The notes below the pieces were generated by a model. The model saw only the letters and a list, made by a program, of their open reading frames with translations, was not told where the DNA came from and made no database searches. From Flavobacteriales bacterium (GTDB taxonomy: Bacteria > Bacteroidota > Bacteroidia > Flavobacteriales_F > PHOS-HE28), in contig JAXLVH010000007.1 of assembly GCA_046329105.1 (NCBI GenBank), positions 128,515 to 192,514 on the forward strand: a stretch of DNA of 64,000 nucleotides, in the 5' to 3' direction. Below are positions 3,470 to 59,557 of the stretch, one piece after another. The translations under genes and the position numbers were made by a program. Every line of letters starts with the position of its first letter. Position 1 is the first letter of the stretch.

Positions 3470-3786
3470 CACCCGAGGACAAGCACCAGTTGGAGGAGAG
3501 CATCATCAATGCGCTCAAGTCGGTGTATGATCCGGAGATCCCCGTGGACATCTACGAGCTGGGGCTGATCTACGATGTTGTGGTCCACGACGATGCCAGT
3601 GTGTACATCAAGATGACCCTGACCAGCCCTGCGTGCCCCGTGGCCGGTTCACTGCCCGGTGAGGTGGAACAGAAGGCGGCCGGTGTACAAGGGGTGAAGA
3701 GCGCCAAGGTGGAACTCACCTTCGAGCCGCCTTGGGACCGTACCATGATCAGTGAAGCGGCGCAGTTGGAGCTGGGGTTCATGTGA
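3466..3786 (+). CDS. sufT: SUF-associated DUF59 Fe-S assembly protein (SufT-like)
   Basis: ATG at 3466 overlaps the sufE stop (ATGA). The 106-aa product MTPEDKHQLEESII...TSPACP.. is a typical DUF59/MIP18 protein. The ORF-track entry 3106..3786 is the same frame with a spurious 5' extension. Confidence 0.8.
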   Translation: MTPEDKHQLEESIINALKSVYDPEIPVDIYELGLIYDVVVHDDASVYIKMTLTSPACPVAGSLPGEVEQKAAGVQGVKSAKVELTFEPPWDRTMISEAAQLELGFM

Positions 3787-38444: not shown

Positions 38445-38605
38445 TATTGCAATAGACCTCCGTCCCAATTGCTCAGGGGAATGAAAAAGACTTGTCACGG
38501 TGAGCCTGCCGAACCGGTCCTTGCTTCGCCGTAGCGGCTACGCAAAGGCGCGGTCGATGGGCTCACCGTGACATTCAATAGGAATTACGACGGAGGTCGA
38601 ATGAA
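38445..38605. repeat. palindromic dispersed repeat (R1 family, copy A): TGTCACGGTGAGCC...GGCTCACCGTGACA nested inside outer inverted repeat GACCTCCGTC/GACGGAGGTC
   Basis: Perfect 14-bp inverted repeat. The internal segment GCGCCTTTGCGTAGCCGCTACGGCG is homologous to the tails of copies B and D. Confidence 0.7.
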
Positions 38606-38807
38606 GTAACCATATACCCATGGGCCATTTGTGCCAGAACGGTCGGGAATGGAACGATGCATAACTTTGATCATGCGCGAACAAGGGCCACCACATTGCG
38701 AATGATCCAGGACCCCCCCGGCTCCATCCCCCGATCCGGCAGGCCCGCTCCACGCCGACCACTACACACGACGTGATGCCATGCGGAACCAACGGCCCGG
38801 CCACCTG

Positions 38808-46870: not shown

Positions 46871-47908
46871 ATGAAACGCTGGACCCTCTTCCCGCTCGCC
46901 ATCGCCATAGGCTCGTCTCTTCTGGCACAGGACACGGCACGCGACAGCACCGGCCTGCCCGGCGATCAATTCAACTTGGAAGGCGCGCTCGACCTCTTCA
47001 AGCGGAACCTTGAGATGGAGGGCTTCGAGAAAGCGCTGAACACCGACAGCAACCGGGTGAACAACCTGGACCTGGACGGCAATGGCCGGATCGACTACGT
47101 GCGGGTGGAGACCCAGCGCGAAGGCAACGCGGCCTATGTGGTGATGAAGGTGGCGGTGAGCGCCACCGAGAGCCAGGACGTGGCGGTGATCGCCATTGAA
47201 AAGACCGGCGAGGAGAGTGCCATCCTCCAGATTATCGGCGATGAGGCCCTGTACGGACCGGATGCGATCGTGGAGCCATACGCCGAGGAACAGGGCATGG
47301 CCCCTTCCAAAGGTCCTTCGGCTCCTGAATTGCATGGCTTCTTCGTCACGGTGAACTGCTGGTTCTGGGAGCCGGTGCCCTGGTTCTTCAGCGACCGCTG
47401 GTACGCCTATCACTCACCTTGGTATTGGGGCTACTATCCGCCGTGGTGGAACACATGGGCCCCGTATGACTGGTTCATCTGGCACGGCTGGTGGGGCTAC
47501 CATCACCACTGGTACCGGCCCTGGGGTAGTTGTCGTGTGGGCTCCGCACAAGCGTTGTACCTGCCCCGTCGGGCGCAGAGTGCAATCGTTCGGGAGCGGT
47601 ACCGGGATGTGCGTGCGCGCTATGAGAAGAACCCCGCCCGCCTGCAGAAGGGACCGGCTGACGGCTTGCAGAAAGAGCGGCATGGGAAAGATGCGGTACG
47701 AGAGCGGCCGGTGACCCCGGATCGCCCTCAACGGGCGAAGGCTCCGGAAGCCCGCCCCAGCAAGGAACCGGGCAAGAACGGAGTGGCCCGGCCCGGCAAA
47801 GCACCACGCCAGCCGGAGGCCCGGCCCGCGCGCAGGCCAGCTAAAGCGCGACCCGCACCCGCGCCGCGGCCGACCCCACGTCCTTCGCCACGGCCACGCG
47901 GCAGATAG
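46871..47908 (+). CDS. secreted protein with Trp/Tyr-rich core and Pro/Arg/Ala-rich C-terminal tail
   Basis: Signal peptide, then a WFWEPVPWFF...WYWGYYPPWWNTWAPYDWFIWHGWWGYHHHWYRPWG segment, then PRPxPRP repeats. Confidence 0.5.
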   Translation: MKRWTLFPLAIAIGSSLLAQDTARDSTGLPGDQFNLEGALDLFKRNLEMEGFEKALNTDSNRVNNLDLDGNGRIDYVRVETQREGNAAYVVMKVAVSATESQDVAVIAIEKTGEESAILQIIGDEALYGPDAIVEPYAEEQGMAPSKGPSAPELHGFFVTVNCWFWEPVPWFFSDRWYAYHSPWYWGYYPPWWNTWAPYDWFIWHGWWGYHHHWYRPWGSCRVGSAQALYLPRRAQSAIVRERYRDVRARYEKNPARLQKGPADGLQKERHGKDAVRERPVTPDRPQRAKAPEARPSKEPGKNGVARPGKAPRQPEARPARRPAKARPAPAPRPTPRPSPRPRGR

Positions 47909-48008
47909 GTCCTCCACATACGGGGATAACAGGAGGCTCCCGGTGGTCGTGATCACCGGGGGCCTTCCGCTTTCCGTACTACCCCTTCTTCAGGAAAGCG
48001 TCCCATCC
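47897..48008. repeat. ~112-bp direct repeat, copy 1 (duplicate of thiL 3' end plus terminator hairpin)
   Basis: About 92% identical to 48420..48532. Re-encodes GWDAFLKKG* and the CCCGGTGGTCGTGATCACCGGG hairpin. Confidence 0.8.
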
Positions 48009-48184
48009 TTCCTGCATTCAGTGATCGCCGCGAGTTCCAACCCGATCGTACGCTGCAAGCCTTGATGACCGGGCACATCCGAATTTGATCGGGTGACTCG
48101 CCCAATCCCCCATTCCCGAGCAAAATAGTGTTCAGACCGGCCTGAACGTGCTGAGGATCGCGTATTCAGAAACGATACCGGCTT

Positions 48185-48330
48185 GTTGCAGCGCTTCGGC
48201 AGGCTCAGCGTGACAGCTCATCGGGAGTGTTCAAGAAAAGTGCTCTTGGACACTCATGTCCCCACTGTCACGCTGAGCCCGCCGACTGCGCCTATGCGTA
48301 GCCGCTCCGGCGAAGTGAGGAGCGCCATAC
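48185..48330. repeat. palindromic dispersed repeat (R1 family, copy B): GGCTCAGCGTGACAG-N48-CTGTCACGCTGAGCC + tail GCCGACTGCGCCTATGCGTAGCCGCTCCGGCGAAGTGAGGAGCGCC
   Basis: Perfect 15-bp inverted repeat. Roughly 85% identical to copy D. Confidence 0.8.
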
Positions 48331-48419
48331 TCCCGTTCCCGGCGCTCGTTCCGGATCTTGAACACAAACACTTGCCCTCACCGATCATCTCGGGTGTCCC
48401 GATCGCTGAAAACAGGGCA

Positions 48420-48532
48420 GCGCGGCAGATAGGTCGTCCACATACTGGAATATCAGGAGGCTCCCGGTGGTCGTGATCACCGGGGGCCTTCCGCTTTCCG
48501 TACTACCCCTTTTTCAGGAATGCGTCCCAGCC
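48420..48532. repeat. ~112-bp direct repeat, copy 2 (authentic thiL 3' end and terminator)
   Basis: See 47897..48008. Confidence 0.8.
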
Positions 48533-49546
48533 CTGCGCGCGCAGCTCGTGCTGGCCGCCCTGCTTGTCGATGAGCGCGTACCCGCTGTTCCTGTCGGTCA
48601 TGTACCCGATCACGGTGAGGCTCGGGTTGCCCTTCACCTTGTCGTAGTCGGCCTGGGCGATGGTGAAAAGCAGTTCGTAGTCCTCGCCGCCGTTGAGCGC
48701 GCAGGTCGTGGGGTCCAGGTTGAAATCGCGGGCGGTCTGATAGGTCCCGGGGTCGATCGGTATTTTTTCGTCGTGGATGCGCACGCCAAGGCCCGAACTG
48801 CGAGCCAGGTGTATGGCCTCGCTGGCCAGTCCATCGCTCACGTCGATCATGGCGGTGGGCCGCACATGCAACTGCTTCAGCAGCGCAATGATGTCCCGCC
48901 GGGCTTCGGGCTTCAACTGGCGCTCGAGGATGTAGTCGTGTCCTTCGAGGTCCGGTTGCGCGCTGGTCTCCCGGAACACGGCCTTCTCGCGCTCCAGCAC
49001 CTGGAGGCCCATGTAGGCGCCGCCCAGATCGCCGCTTACCACCAGCAGATCGTGCTCCTTCGCACCGCTGCGGTACGTGATGTCCTCCTTCCGCGCCGCG
49101 CCGATGGCGGTGATACCGATGACCAGCCCGCTGGTGCTGCTGCACGTGTCGCCGCCCACGAGGTCCACGCCATAGTTCTTGCAGGCCAGCAGCATGCCCT
49201 CGTACAACTCGTCGATGGCCTCTACGGGAAAGCGGTTGCTGAGGGCCAGCGCCACCGTCACCTGTCGGGGTTCGGCGTTCATGGCGTACACATCGCTCAG
49301 GTTCACCACGATGGCCTTGTAGCCCAGGTGCTTCAGCGGCACGTAGCCCAGGTCGAAATGGACACCTTCCACCAGCATATCGGTGGTGACCACTTGGTGC
49401 AGGCCCTGCGGATCCAGAACGGCGGCATCATCGCCGATGCCCTTCACCGAGGAGGGATTCGCGAGACGAACGCGGGAGGCGATGCGCTCGATGAGGCCGA
49501 ATTCGCCGAGGGCGGAGAGTTCGGTGCGGGTGGTTGACTCGGACAT
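48503..49546 (-). CDS. thiL: thiamine-monophosphate kinase
   Basis: AIR-synthase-related fold with the GDDAAVL motif. Confidence 0.85.
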   Translation of the reverse strand: MSESTTRTELSALGEFGLIERIASRVRLANPSSVKGIGDDAAVLDPQGLHQVVTTDMLVEGVHFDLGYVPLKHLGYKAIVVNLSDVYAMNAEPRQVTVALALSNRFPVEAIDELYEGMLLACKNYGVDLVGGDTCSSTSGLVIGITAIGAARKEDITYRSGAKEHDLLVVSGDLGGAYMGLQVLEREKAVFRETSAQPDLEGHDYILERQLKPEARRDIIALLKQLHVRPTAMIDVSDGLASEAIHLARSSGLGVRIHDEKIPIDPGTYQTARDFNLDPTTCALNGGEDYELLFTIAQADYDKVKGNPSLTVIGYMTDRNSGYALIDKQGGQHELRAQGWDAFLKKG

Positions 49547-51610: not shown

Positions 51611-52054
51611 GTGACCGTGTTCCGGCCGACGGCTGTCGCCATTTCATCCTATGCGGCCATCGGCCCCCAATGGTCATCTGCCTGGAACTGCTCGAGGACC
51701 GAGCGCCGCAACTTTGTCAAGGCCTTGCACTTGGCTGTCTCCGCCGAATTGGCACTGGGAGGCTCTATGTCGAATACAGTGGGTAGTCGAACTTGAGCTT
51801 ACCGGTGAGGAAGTATATCACGTTGATGATGTTTTGGATATTCAGGTAGCCCCTTGCCCTTGCTCTGGCGAGTTGGACCTTTGAATTGATCCCTTCGCGG
51901 ATCCCGTTGGAGAAGTGGTACTTGGTGTGGTTGGTGATGCCAGCCCAATACTGGGCAACGGTCTTCGCGAACTTGACAAAAGGGCCAATGGCTGCATCGG
52001 CGGCCAAGTCACACCAGAAGGCCAGGAAGCTCCTGTTTTAACTAAATGGGTCAC
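51611..52054 (-). mobile_element. ISL3-family insertion-sequence remnant
   Basis: It contains the transposase C-terminal fragment listed next. No intact transposase or clear terminal inverted repeats were found. Confidence 0.55.
51765..52007 (-). pseudogene. ISL3-family transposase, C-terminal ~80-aa fragment
   Basis: ...ITNHTKYHFSNGIREGINSKVQLARARARGYLNIQNIINVIYF matches the conserved ISL3 transposase C-terminus (NxxxEGxNxKIKxxKRxAxGYRN). The N-terminus is absent. Confidence 0.6.
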
Positions 52055-52177: not shown

Positions 52178-52420
52178 TCAAGGCTCCGCGTCAGCAATGG
52201 CGTGGCCTCATTGAAATCTGCCGAAGCGCTTCGACGGGCTCAGCGTGACATTTCAGGTGCCGCGTCGGCAAGAACGCGACCTCATTGAAACGGTGTGTGG
52301 CGATGTTCCCACGGAACATGGGCTCCACGTCAGCAATCGTATGGCGTCATTGAAACCCGTCGAAGCGGTGAGCTTGCCGAACCGTCGACGGGCTCAGCGT
52401 GACATTTCGGGCTCCACGTC
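52178..52420. repeat. ~139-bp tandem repeat (about 2.1 copies) ending in GGCTCAGCGTGACATTTC
   Basis: Units begin near 52181, 52320 and 52410 (GGGCTCCACGTCAGCAAT...CATTGAAA...CGACGGGCTCAGCGTGACATTTC). They share the R1 core GGCTCAGCGTGACA. Confidence 0.7.
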
Positions 52421-52472: not shown

Positions 52473-54200
52473 CTACCGCAGCACGCGCATCACCGGATAG
52501 AGCCGATGCCCCGGCTCGTAGTGCGGCGATCGTTGGTACACCCAGTACAATTGTTGCCACGCATCCGCCGCGAAGGCGGGATCGGTGCTGCGGCGATCGT
52601 TCAACTCCTTTCGCAGTTCCGGGTCCTTGGCCAGCAGTTCTGCGGCGATGCTCTCGAAGACATAATCACTGAACCACTCCTTCTGCTGCAGCACACTGTC
52701 GAAGAAGCCCCAGGCGAAGAACCCGTCCGAGGCCCGTGGCTCGAGCATTTCCATGGCCAGGCGGTCCGTGCGGTGGCCCATGGGCACCAACACATCGCCC
52801 GGGTGGAGTACGACCTCGATGGTGTCCGTGGTGGTGCTGACCCCTTGATGCAGGTAGTGCCCTTCGTACGGTTCGCGCACCGTGCCGAAGTCGGTGATGC
52901 GCTGGGCCTCCACGCGCTCGGTCCGCTCCTCGTTCACGGTGTCCAGTGGAACACCGGCGAGGCGCAACCGCTGGATCACCTCGGGCCAGGCCTGCGGCAC
53001 CAGGTAAGCCACGGGCTTGGTGAGGGTGATCGTCGGGATCGCATGGTCCCGCCATGGCACCAGGGTGTCCATGCGCTGCGACCGGTCGTAGTGCAATTGC
53101 GGCAGGCCCGATACGGCGCTGGGTCGTTCGGAGGCCGTATACCCTTTCCACGGGAGCAGTTCTGTACGCGTGGTATCAATTTGCCAGTTGAGGCCGAAGG
53201 CTTCTGCTGCGGCCGTGTTGCTTCCGGCCTGCATGCGGCTTGTGCGCAGCTCTTCACCGTGCTGATCCATCACGGCGAGCGTGGCCAGCATGAGCTGAAA
53301 GGTGGCGTTCACACGATCGGCGTACGGCTTCAACATGTGCGATTCGGACAGCAGCCCGATGCGCCCTTGGAGCGCGGAGAATCCCGTGCTGTAGCGTGGT
53401 CCGTCCACGAAGCCCTCCAGCCCGTGCTCCGGGGGTCCGTCCACCGTTTCGAAGTACGGGCACATCCCGATGTCCTTGCGCTCCATCCAAGTGTACAGGC
53501 CGGGGAGCAAGTGGTCGTTCGCGAAGGACCTCAGCGTGGGATCCAGCTTGTCGCGATGCGTCAGCAGCAACTCCATCAGGTACCGGTGGTCGGCCCCATC
53601 GCTCACATGCGTTTCCATATAGATGTCCGGATCCCAGCGGGTGAGTGCGGCTACCAGCGATCGGGTATTGCGCGAGTCCATTTTCATGAAGTCACGATTG
53701 AGGTCCAGGTTGCGTGCATTGCCTCGGAAGCCATACGCCTCGGGGCCGTTCTGGTTCACCCGCAGGGCGCCGTTGCGTTGCAGCGCACCTCTCACGTTGT
53801 ACATGGGTACGATGCACACGGCGGTGTGGACGGTGAGCCCCATCAGTTGGTCGCTCTCCAGCAGCGCCCGTGCCAGCAAGAGGCTCGCATCCACGCCGTC
53901 GGGTTCGCCGGGATGGATGCCGTTGGTGATCCACAGGATGTTCTTCCCGCTTGCACGGATGCTGTCGGGGGAGAAGCCGCTGCCATCGCTCACCACGAAG
54001 AGGTGGATGGGGAGTCCGTTGTCGTCGTACCCCATCACCTGCAATTGGGCGCCGGTGTGCAGGCTGTCGAGCTCTGCGTAGCGCGCGATGGCCTCTTGCC
54101 AGGTGGGTGTGGTGTTTCCAGTGAAGGTCCATTGAGCGGCACAATGCGACCAGAGGAAACCAGTGACGGCACACAGGAGCCATCGTGTGCAACAGGACAT
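52473..54200 (-). CDS. M14-family zinc carboxypeptidase, secreted
   Basis: Signal peptide and the HPGE zinc-binding motif (NGIHPGEPDG), with an M14-like fold. Confidence 0.8.
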   Translation of the reverse strand: MSCCTRWLLCAVTGFLWSHCAAQWTFTGNTTPTWQEAIARYAELDSLHTGAQLQVMGYDDNGLPIHLFVVSDGSGFSPDSIRASGKNILWITNGIHPGEPDGVDASLLLARALLESDQLMGLTVHTAVCIVPMYNVRGALQRNGALRVNQNGPEAYGFRGNARNLDLNRDFMKMDSRNTRSLVAALTRWDPDIYMETHVSDGADHRYLMELLLTHRDKLDPTLRSFANDHLLPGLYTWMERKDIGMCPYFETVDGPPEHGLEGFVDGPRYSTGFSALQGRIGLLSESHMLKPYADRVNATFQLMLATLAVMDQHGEELRTSRMQAGSNTAAAEAFGLNWQIDTTRTELLPWKGYTASERPSAVSGLPQLHYDRSQRMDTLVPWRDHAIPTITLTKPVAYLVPQAWPEVIQRLRLAGVPLDTVNEERTERVEAQRITDFGTVREPYEGHYLHQGVSTTTDTIEVVLHPGDVLVPMGHRTDRLAMEMLEPRASDGFFAWGFFDSVLQQKEWFSDYVFESIAAELLAKDPELRKELNDRRSTDPAFAADAWQQLYWVYQRSPHYEPGHRLYPVMRVLR

Positions 54201-54467
54201 CGGGTCAGGCATATGTGAATTTCGGTATGATGATCCGAAGCACCTCCATCGCTCGGCCCGGAGGAAGGGGGGCCTCGATGCGGAACTGCGACAGCGTCAC
54301 CAATGTCGGTCCCCGGGTGTTCCGCGTTCCCATCACGGCAAAGGAACAGCGGGACAACCTCAGGACATCATCGGACCGGCTCCTCAATGATCGTTAACGG
54401 ATCGAGGTCCGTTGAACCTTGTGGCCCGATGCTTGTCACAACACCACCGAACCCAACGTGAACGAAC

Positions 54468-54875
54468 ATGAAGAAGCTATTGATGCTGATGGTGCTGGCC
54501 GCTATGACCGCCACCGTCCAAGCCCAGGACACCGGCAAGAGGACCACTCAGGAAAGGGCTCATGCGCGCTCGGAACGCATGGCCAAGGAACTCGGCCTGA
54601 GTCCGGAGCAACAAGCGAAAGTGGAAGCCATCGACCTGAAGTACGCCGAGCGGTCGCAAGCCTTGCGTGCCGAACGCGAAGCCAAGGAGGATGGGGCACG
54701 GAAGGATGGCCAAGGCCGCGCGATCCGCGATGCGCGCGAGGTGGAAATGAAAGGGGTGCTCACTCCGGAGCAATTCTCGCGGTGGAAGGCGAAGCGCGAC
54801 GAACTGAAAGCGCGCCGTACCGCGCAACACAAAGCGTTGCGCTCAACGAAGAAGGAGGCGATCCCGCAGCAGTAG
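54468..54875 (+). CDS. hypothetical secreted helical protein (Spy/LTXXQ-like)
   Basis: Signal peptide, Lys/Glu/Arg-rich helical repeats and an LSPEQ motif. Confidence 0.45.
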   Translation: MKKLLMLMVLAAMTATVQAQDTGKRTTQERAHARSERMAKELGLSPEQQAKVEAIDLKYAERSQALRAEREAKEDGARKDGQGRAIRDAREVEMKGVLTPEQFSRWKAKRDELKARRTAQHKALRSTKKEAIPQQ

Positions 54876-54953
54876 GAAACGGGATCTTGAAGAGTGTTCC
54901 GTTACCGCACTTCCCAAGAGCCATGGTGAGCACGCTTGCCCTGACGAGGGCTT

Positions 54954-55085
54954 GGCCGGCGGACTTCACGGTTCGGTGGGCTCGCCGCGACACGCCTTTG
55001 TGATCATCCAGGGCGATCGGCATGGAGAAGCATCCAATGAACGCCCCGCGGGATATCGGCGGGGCGTTCGCGTTCACCTGCTTCC
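54954..55085. repeat. ~131-bp direct repeat, copy 1 (duplicate of arsC 3'-flank/terminator)
   Basis: About 88% identical to 55423..55553. Contains a strong hairpin GAACGCCCCGC-gggatatcg-GCGGGGCGTTC. Confidence 0.8.
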
Positions 55086-55274
55086 TGTTTCCAGTGATCG
55101 GGATACCCGTGGCGATCCGCGAGGGCAAAAATTCGTGGTCAAGCGGGCAGGTCAGGTCCGAATACCCGACCCAAGAACGGAAGTGCCCGTCCATCAGCGC
55201 TTGTAGCGCGGGATAGCGCCAGGAGCCGGGATGAGTACTGGGAACAGGAGTATGACGCTTCGGCCCTTCCGGTG

Positions 55275-55410
55275 TCAGGGCAGGCTCGCTCAGCGTGACA
55301 GTTCATAGGGAGTAATAGAACAGTGCTCGTGGACACCCATGACCCCACTGTCACGCTGAGCCGGCCGACTGCGCCTATGCGTAGCCGCTCCGGCGATGCG
55401 AGGAGCGCTA
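55275..55410. repeat. palindromic dispersed repeat (R1 family, copy D)
   Basis: GGCTCGCTCAGCGTGACAG-N45-CTGTCACGCTGAGCC + GGCCGACTGCGCCTATGCGTAGCCGCTCCGGCGATGCGAGGAGCGC. Confidence 0.8.
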
Positions 55411-55422
55411 CAACAAGCCGGT

Positions 55423-55553
55423 ATCGGCGGACTTCACGGTTCGAGGGGCTCGTCGGGACACGCCCTTGTGATCATCCTGGGCGATCGGCAAGGAGGTGCA
55501 TCAAATGAATGCCCCGTGGAATATCGGCGGGGCGTTCGCGCTCACCTGCTTCA
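55423..55553. repeat. ~131-bp direct repeat, copy 2 (abuts the arsC stop)
   Basis: See 54954..55085. Confidence 0.8.
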
Positions 55554-59361: not shown

Positions 59362-59557
59362 GGAACATCCTCACCACAGAGGCACAGAGGACACAGAGAA
59401 AGACCACATGAAGCGGCAAGGAGCGGATCAGCGAGTGCGAGTTGCATTTCTCGGTGTCTCCGTGCATCTGTGGTGAACACGAATTGAACAATGGCCCCAG
59501 CAGCCCAAGCGCATTCCTCCGTGCCCTCTGTGCCTCTGTGGTGAAAAGCATTCCAGC

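Follow-up and report, generated by a model that had tools for sequence, protein, structure and literature searches.

A small MITE-like element that appears to duplicate long, variable target segments between convergent genes of an activated-sludge Flavobacteriales bacterium

The window analysed here, a stretch of 64,000 nucleotides from the assembly of an uncultured activated-sludge Flavobacteriales bacterium (GCA_046329105.1, contig JAXLVH010000007.1, positions 128,515 to 192,514), has two loci at which long, imperfect direct repeats surround a short insert. The structures are most probably explained by a small, non-coding and non-autonomous MITE-like element of 340–410 bp, whose insertion duplicates the target between convergent genes. 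The flanking repeats are read as target-site duplications that are long and vary in length (57, 118 and 127 bp, n = 3 insertions with scorable flanks). The ends of the element, its copies, the position of the repeats beside it and a presence/absence polymorphism are seen directly.

The first locus lies between a DUF4890/LTXXQ-type gene (54468–54875, plus strand; an open reading frame with a weak LTXXQ match, and with PF16231 on identical contigs) and an arsC-family gene (ArsC/Spx/MgsR, PF03960; 55551–55913, minus strand). These two genes are convergent, and the 675-bp spacer between them contains the entire repeat-element-repeat structure; the neighbourhood as a whole consists of genes for a peptidase, DUF4890, ArsC, TetR and efflux components. 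A repeat search of the window gives 54957–55084 against 55425–55552 (128 nt, 89%), and the local alignment is free of gaps, with 114 of 128 positions matching. The arsC repeat alignment scores 184; the highest score among 300 shuffles was 25. When trimmed to the borders of the element, the direct repeat that the initial annotation had described at the arsC flank proves real, with 113 of 127 positions identical and no gaps. Copy A (54957–55083) is distal to arsC and ends one base before the left inverted repeat of the element; copy A' (55425–55551) starts one base past the element and, as had also been noticed, ends at the arsC stop codon, position 55551 being the first base of the reverse-complemented stop (55551–55553).

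Both copies carry a GC-rich stem-loop. The one in copy A (55039–55069; arms GAACGCCCCGC/GCGGGGCGTTC) has a perfect 11-bp stem and no T run after it. In copy A' (55507–55537), two C-to-T changes result in C·A mismatches on the arsC-sense strand. Folding on that strand gives −31.5 kcal/mol for the distal stem-loop and −21.9 kcal/mol for the proximal one, in agreement with the earlier view that the distal copy has the better-formed hairpin. On plus-strand RNA, both C-to-T sites in the proximal stem-loop pair as G·U wobbles (−32.9 kcal/mol). The changes pair only there, and the hairpin beside arsC is thus better preserved for the opposite strand.

What is the unit enclosed by the repeats? The insert near thiL is bounded on both sides by a 17-bp terminal inverted repeat, CCTGYTTTCAGCGATCG (48011–48027 and 48400–48416), and so is a copy on contig L109 (358–374 and 712–728). 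This repeat is present at the left end only of the arsC copy (55084–55100, plus strand, read there as CCTGTTTCCAGTGATCG in an inverted-repeat search) and of the copy on contig L110. As a pair, the ends read CCTGYTTTCAGCGATCG ... CGATCRCTGAAARCAGG, and a degenerate 24-nt end pattern has two matches in the window against none expected. The thiL copy is 406 bp long, the L109 copy 371 bp and the arsC copy 341 bp. The whole thiL insert (48009–48416) recurs at the unrelated L109 locus (358–730, 84% over 409 nt), and a scan of metagenomes for the R1 hairpin, which lies inside these units, gave 14 contigs (L099–L112), with partial copies of the element on L110, L106 and L112. There are at least five copies at different loci. 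Stop codons interrupt all six frames of every copy, and the longest open reading frame of the element has no homologue among 5.8 billion proteins. Neither an autonomous partner nor a transposase with such ends turned up in the window, the fetched loci or viral contigs. In its size under about 600 bp, its terminal inverted repeats, its non-coding sequence and its multiple dispersed copies with target-site duplications, the element has the marks of a MITE.

The arsC copy (55084–55424, plus strand) was delimited by alignment with the thiL, L109, L112, L110 and L106 copies. Its first part, 55084–55142, is the reverse complement of 48358–48416 in the thiL insert (about 78%); the initial annotation had seen this match but placed its start too late, as it begins at 55084. 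The first 24 nt of the match fit a single degenerate pattern that has no further occurrence in the window. There follows an extra internal module of 80 nt (55143–55222, plus strand, alignment columns 60–139), which the arsC and L112 copies have and those of thiL and L109 lack; relatives are found at L112 1194–1281 and L100 869–938. Further on is the R1 module, copy D (55249–55424, plus strand), a GC-rich imperfect palindrome (GCTCAGCGTGACA / TGTCACGCTGAGC) with arms at 55288–55300 and 55349–55361 and a 48-nt loop. This region is 89% identical to 48203–48325. R1 copy D does lie between the arsC repeats, but ‘R1-bearing insert’ needs correction as a description: the real unit is a discrete element bounded by the inverted repeats, and R1 is only an internal module of it. 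The last ~165 nt, right inverted repeat included, are missing from the arsC copy, whose final bases (...AAGCCGGTAT) are those of the R1 ‘X’ end. Truncation or a genuine short form could account for this; termination of the L106 copy at an identical position is in favour of the latter.

The R1 loop of ~48 nt (55301–55348 compared with 48216–48265) lies between perfect 13-nt arms and can face either way with respect to the inverted-repeat end, one way in the arsC and L112 copies and the other way in those of thiL, L109, L110 and L106. The sequences suggest that the loop may be inverted by recombination between the arms. Because the loop occurs in both orientations, the two inserts of the window had appeared to be related but ‘arranged differently’.

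Two of the contigs with copies have features of their own. Contig L112 (1–2892) follows the window from 54313 to 55426, up to the R1 ‘X’ end, and then continues in foreign sequence, made up of the right part of a different element copy plus the 3' terminus of a Cys/Met-metabolism PLP-enzyme-like gene, with neither A' nor arsC. Recombination between copies of the element, or a chimeric assembly, would account for it. The L109 contig (3754 bp) has ends, 1–114 and 3641–3754, that are 100% identical over 114 nt, which may reflect circularity of the molecule or a repeat-induced artefact of assembly.

The second locus of the window, also pointed out initially, has a raw repeat of 120 nt with 92% identity (47889–48008 against 48413–48532). 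Here, an open reading frame of no Pfam family, ORF345 (46871–47908, plus strand), converges with thiL, the gene for thiamine-phosphate kinase (48503–49546, minus strand, PF00586). The complete element (48011–48416, minus strand, R1 arms 48203–48215 and 48266–48278) separates copy A on the ORF345 side (47893–48010) from copy A' on the thiL side (48417–48534), each of 118 nt, with 109 positions identical and nine different. The duplication takes in the final 16 nt of ORF345 and, at its other end, the final 32 nt of thiL, which are contained in copy A'. In copy A, the 23 nt next to the element correspond to the thiL 3' end in decayed form, and the duplicated coding fragment of thiL has three differences, all synonymous. 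The duplicated segment is host sequence and no part of the element.

Contig L109 provides a third instance, with repeats at 301–357 and 729–785 (57 nt, 49 of 57 identical; score 74, shuffle maximum 29). At thiL, L109 and arsC alike, the repeats abut the ends of the element to the base, and the three repeat pairs are mutually unrelated in sequence. Around R1 copies that have no inverted-repeat ends (38493–38573 and 52182–52420), in contrast, flanking repeats do not rise above shuffle level. The long repeats are therefore associated with the element and not with R1. R1 also exists independently of the inverted-repeat element, as there are tandem arrays of R1 arms on contigs L100 (192–843) and L101 (1082–1640), with overlapping self-matches of 75–91%; the R1 motif is absent in 1.4 Mb of related genomes.

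Could the repeats have arisen by a local tandem duplication, through slippage or unequal crossing-over, that happened to enclose repeat-rich DNA? Formally, the loci can be read as 1.25 copies of a unit of 468 or 524 bp. Such a coincidence is nevertheless extremely improbable, since the borders of the repeats match the inverted repeats of the element at three loci, the same mobile element is enclosed every time, and R1 copies that lack these ends show no such duplication. Less credible still, to the point of being negligible, is a functional repeat pair, such as the template and variable repeats of a diversity-generating retroelement. Two direct repeats of ~125 nt with about 90% identity, one of them at a gene 3' end, do recall that arrangement, but the 14 differences are of mixed type and have no adenine bias, the repeat does not lie in the coding part of arsC, the neighbouring genes include no reverse transcriptase, and no Rfam family matches. 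The retroelement pair was rejected on the substitution pattern. The Rfam search of the window had no match at the gathering threshold, and at permissive E-values the two loci gave matches at chance level only.

The thiL site offers a comparison of filled and empty alleles. Contigs with this site were obtained from look-ups of ThiL and of a 95%-identical relative, and three of them, from three samples, are element-free: L114 (SRR8797215), L136 (DRR830135) and L138 (SRR11294023). In all three, 70 nt separate thiL from ORF345, the 118-nt segment is single, and neither the inverted repeat nor R1 is present at the site. In a three-way alignment, the single copy is identical to A' towards thiL and to A towards ORF345, and a 58-nt core with the stem-loop is identical in A, A' and the single copy. 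The filled and empty alleles differ by one repeat copy plus the element, i.e. 524 bp, as a target-site duplication predicts. The pattern of identity is also that predicted by decay of redundant halves, where each copy would retain the part that serves the adjacent gene and the redundant part would be unconstrained. Together with the L109 instance, these single-copy alleles bear out the proposal that the two loci of the window represent one phenomenon, a specific insertion mechanism and not slippage.

The L136 and L138 alleles differ from the window at nine positions, all in the element-proximal halves of the thiL copies. Six are in A', in the element-proximal 37 nt (48419–48453), and three are in A, in the element-proximal 23 nt (47988–48006). 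Elsewhere these contigs are 100% identical to the window over about 3.6 kb (about 2.25 + 1.5 kb).

In which direction did the polymorphism arise? As the redundant halves differ at nine of ~60 sites and the flanks are identical, the empty allele is not a recent ancestor that was faithfully duplicated. The empty alleles of L136 and L138 can be read as recent excision products no less well than as an ancestral empty site, and empty thiL alleles alone are no proof of a single-copy site before insertion. Excision by recombination between A and A' within the identical core is the preferred explanation, since it reproduces the sequence of the empty allele exactly. An old presence/absence polymorphism at thiL that persists in a recombining population also fits. 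Least likely is that the insertion itself introduced the substitutions near the element; these, nine in about 60 nt within about 40 nt of the element ends compared with none in the 3.6-kb flank, may stem from error-prone gap filling at insertion instead of later decay. Excision, old polymorphism and mutagenic insertion have in common that a single target segment is present twice in the repeats.

Filled thiL alleles are also found in strains that diverge nearby, in L099 (about 2% divergent) and in L135 (28 differences), and L135 differs from the window only at more than 300 nt from the element. In L114, 43 of the 44 differences from the window thiL fall in the first 220 nt of the gene (49327–49546, against L114 169–388), which are about 20% divergent, and the other 824 nt differ at one site. 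The 5' stretch is a sharp recombination tract from a divergent lineage. Mosaic differences of this kind in thiL support frequent recombination, and they raise the question whether the insert spread secondarily by homologous recombination, either as a circle or fragment with the element and one repeat, by a single crossover, or as an allele, by a double crossover; the repeats would then not have been generated at these sites by transposition. The L114 mosaic, the distribution of the L135 differences and the presence or absence of the insert on identical flanks all speak for movement of this sort. It accounts for the movement of alleles within the species, but not for the origin of a duplication that abuts inverted repeats, and it cannot account for three loci with different repeats; as the source of the structures it is very unlikely.

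At the arsC locus, comparative genomics yielded the insert and no empty site. Look-ups with the exact ArsC protein, with the near-identical protein P0001 (99% identical) and with the exact DUF4890 protein gave roughly 25 contigs for examination. Every contig of sufficient length with the exact ArsC or DUF4890 protein has the insert in a spacer of 673–675 bp, a result that covers many samples, and none of the roughly 25 has an empty site. The identity of ArsC homologues falls from 99% directly to 78%, and relatives at 75–78% have other neighbours and downstream spacers of 28–106 bp. Among species-representative genomes, the M14 peptidase gene located between the two loci (52473–54212) has a best match of 66% protein identity, with no arsC or thiL near it. 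In the strain represented by contigs L123/L124, the two arsC repeat copies are identical at 115 of 127 positions, compared with 113 of 127 in the window, and three of the five differences from the window within the repeats are at sites where A and A' differ. The two copies thus seem to be still diverging or converting. The strain comparison also has 16 differences in the 675-bp spacer and none in DUF4890; the spacer evolves faster than the flanking genes. As no empty arsC site was found in the contigs examined, the arsC case is made by analogy: the left inverted repeat that abuts A, the family identity with the thiL and L109 copies and the divergence of A and A' are what point to a target duplication there.

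A sequence of events can be proposed. The element would have inserted independently between DUF4890 and arsC and between ORF345 and thiL. A transposase acting in trans would join the two ends of the element to the two target strands at points 57–127 bp apart, and gap-repair synthesis would then duplicate the intervening target segment. Since this segment holds the stem-loop shared by the genes (at thiL also both coding ends), both genes would keep an intact 3' end and a stem-loop. The redundant half of each repeat copy would decay afterwards, and homologous recombination between the long repeats could lead to a clean loss of the element. The staggered joining step and the kind of transposase are what we infer in this scheme.

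Is there a precedent for joining so far apart? IS1549 and IS1634 produce variable direct repeats of 8–514 bp on insertion, and no mechanistic model exists for these long duplications (De Palmenaer et al. 2008, PMC2266710). Beyond these two, a literature search found no other precedent for such long, variable target duplications. IS1549 (Mycobacterium smegmatis) and IS1634 (Mycoplasma mycoides), both of the IS1634 family, likewise combine inverted-repeat ends with long variable target duplications, a property of these two elements and not of the family as a whole, and the 57, 118 and 127 bp of the present element are within their range of 8–514 bp. They are, however, autonomous elements of 1.6–1.9 kb with a DDE transposase, whereas the element described here is 340–410 bp, non-coding and non-autonomous. 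The likeness is one of insertion behaviour, and the present host, an uncultured Flavobacteriales bacterium, is unlike the hosts of IS1549 and IS1634. It is conceivable, though doubtful, that the mover is an undescribed transposition system of the Bacteroidota, not of IS1634 type, that joins ends 57–127 bp apart, with the joining points perhaps flanking the stem-loop that convergent genes share. If this were true, insertion would be harmless, as the 3' ends are kept, and fully reversible through recombination between the repeats.

The initial annotation had taken the repeats for copies of a terminator and argued for a mechanism that targets or copies gene 3' ends, for which template switching at hairpins or an integrative element with its own 3'-end copy, of the kind known from tRNA-targeting islands, might be imagined. 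All three insertions (arsC, thiL and L109) are indeed between convergent genes, a strong GC-rich stem-loop is present in two of the three duplicated segments, and the synonymous nature of the three differences in the thiL coding fragment could also be cited in favour. Although the stem-loops fold strongly (−30 to −33 kcal/mol), they are not followed by a T run, and a scan for intrinsic terminators reported none at their positions. The repeats are specific to each locus and unequal in length, the element brings its own inverted-repeat ends, and no integrase is nearby. The L109 duplication has no consistent hairpin, and the hairpin was for this reason rejected as a universal target feature. Comparison with the element-free allele adds that only the redundant halves carry the ‘foreign-looking’ differences and that these did not arrive with the element. 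The notion of a copied terminator thus gives way to target duplications of 57, 118 and 127 bp. Selection against harmful insertions is alone expected to produce a bias towards convergent spacers, and as it gives the same pattern, targeting of gene 3' ends is not established. A dedicated mechanism that recognises or copies terminators or gene 3' ends is unlikely.

Bacterial MITEs such as Correia, RUP, ERIC and Nezha are small, have inverted-repeat ends, are non-coding and intergenic, exist as diverged copies and are mosaic inside. The present element is like them in size, ends, absence of coding capacity, diverged copies, intergenic location and mosaic structure. The target duplications of described bacterial MITEs are, to our knowledge, short (about 2–10 bp), and the element differs in having duplications of 57–127 bp that include the ends of coding regions. 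As selfish DNA it is ordinary; the extent of the duplicated target is what sets it apart. R1 resembles repeats of the REP/BIME type, being likewise a GC-rich imperfect palindrome that is also found solitary (38493–38573) and in tandem arrays; it differs in that R1 alone has no long duplications and no RAYT-type gene was seen. Integrative elements with att repeats also have direct repeats that include a gene 3' end and leave the gene intact, but here there is no integrase, the repeats differ at each locus and the ends are inverted repeats. An att duplication of the integrase type was rejected on these grounds.

Transposition rarely duplicates tens to hundreds of base pairs of its target, and such duplications are mechanistically unexplained. 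A non-autonomous family that behaves like IS1549 and IS1634 would add a case from a different phylum, and the natural filled and empty alleles in public metagenomes provide material on how element ends join so far apart. With a long duplication, an element can hit the ends of two convergent genes and damage neither, and recombination between the repeats can erase the insertion without a scar. For annotation, puzzling ‘duplicated terminator’ structures may be the ordinary footprints of mobile elements.

Some further repeats of the window are of note. The palindromic R1 unit of ~80 nt at 38493–38573, TGTCACGGTGAGC...GCTCACCGTGACA, is within a larger unit (38446–38608) that is bounded by the inverted repeats GACCTCCGTCCCAATTGC ... 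GGAATTACGACGGAGGTC and has no long flanking repeats. A 67%-identical copy of the larger unit is found at L110 776–915, and the unit resembles a further family of small mobile elements with R1 inside. The 52182–52420 region, between the M14 peptidase gene and an ISL3 fragment, contains a ~37-nt unit, GGCTCCRCGTCAGCAA...CATTGAAA, three to four times, alternating with R1 arm units (GCTTCGACGGGCTCAGCGTGACATTTC); one pair of 36 nt is 154 nt apart. The ISL3 fragment, at ~51765–52007 on the minus strand, corresponds to open reading frames of 80–126 amino acids with DDE_Tnp_ISL3 fragments on identical contigs (L007 6466–6708, L008 and L010). It is a decayed insertion sequence beside an R1-rich stretch and has no link to the inverted repeats of the element. 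Lastly, an inverted repeat at 59371–59544, with 31-nt arms (TCACCACAGAGGCACAGAGGACACAGAGAAA / TTCCTCCGTGCCCTCTGTGCCTCTGTGGTGA) that are 90% complementary and 112 nt apart, is located just upstream of an RND transporter gene and is unrelated to R1.
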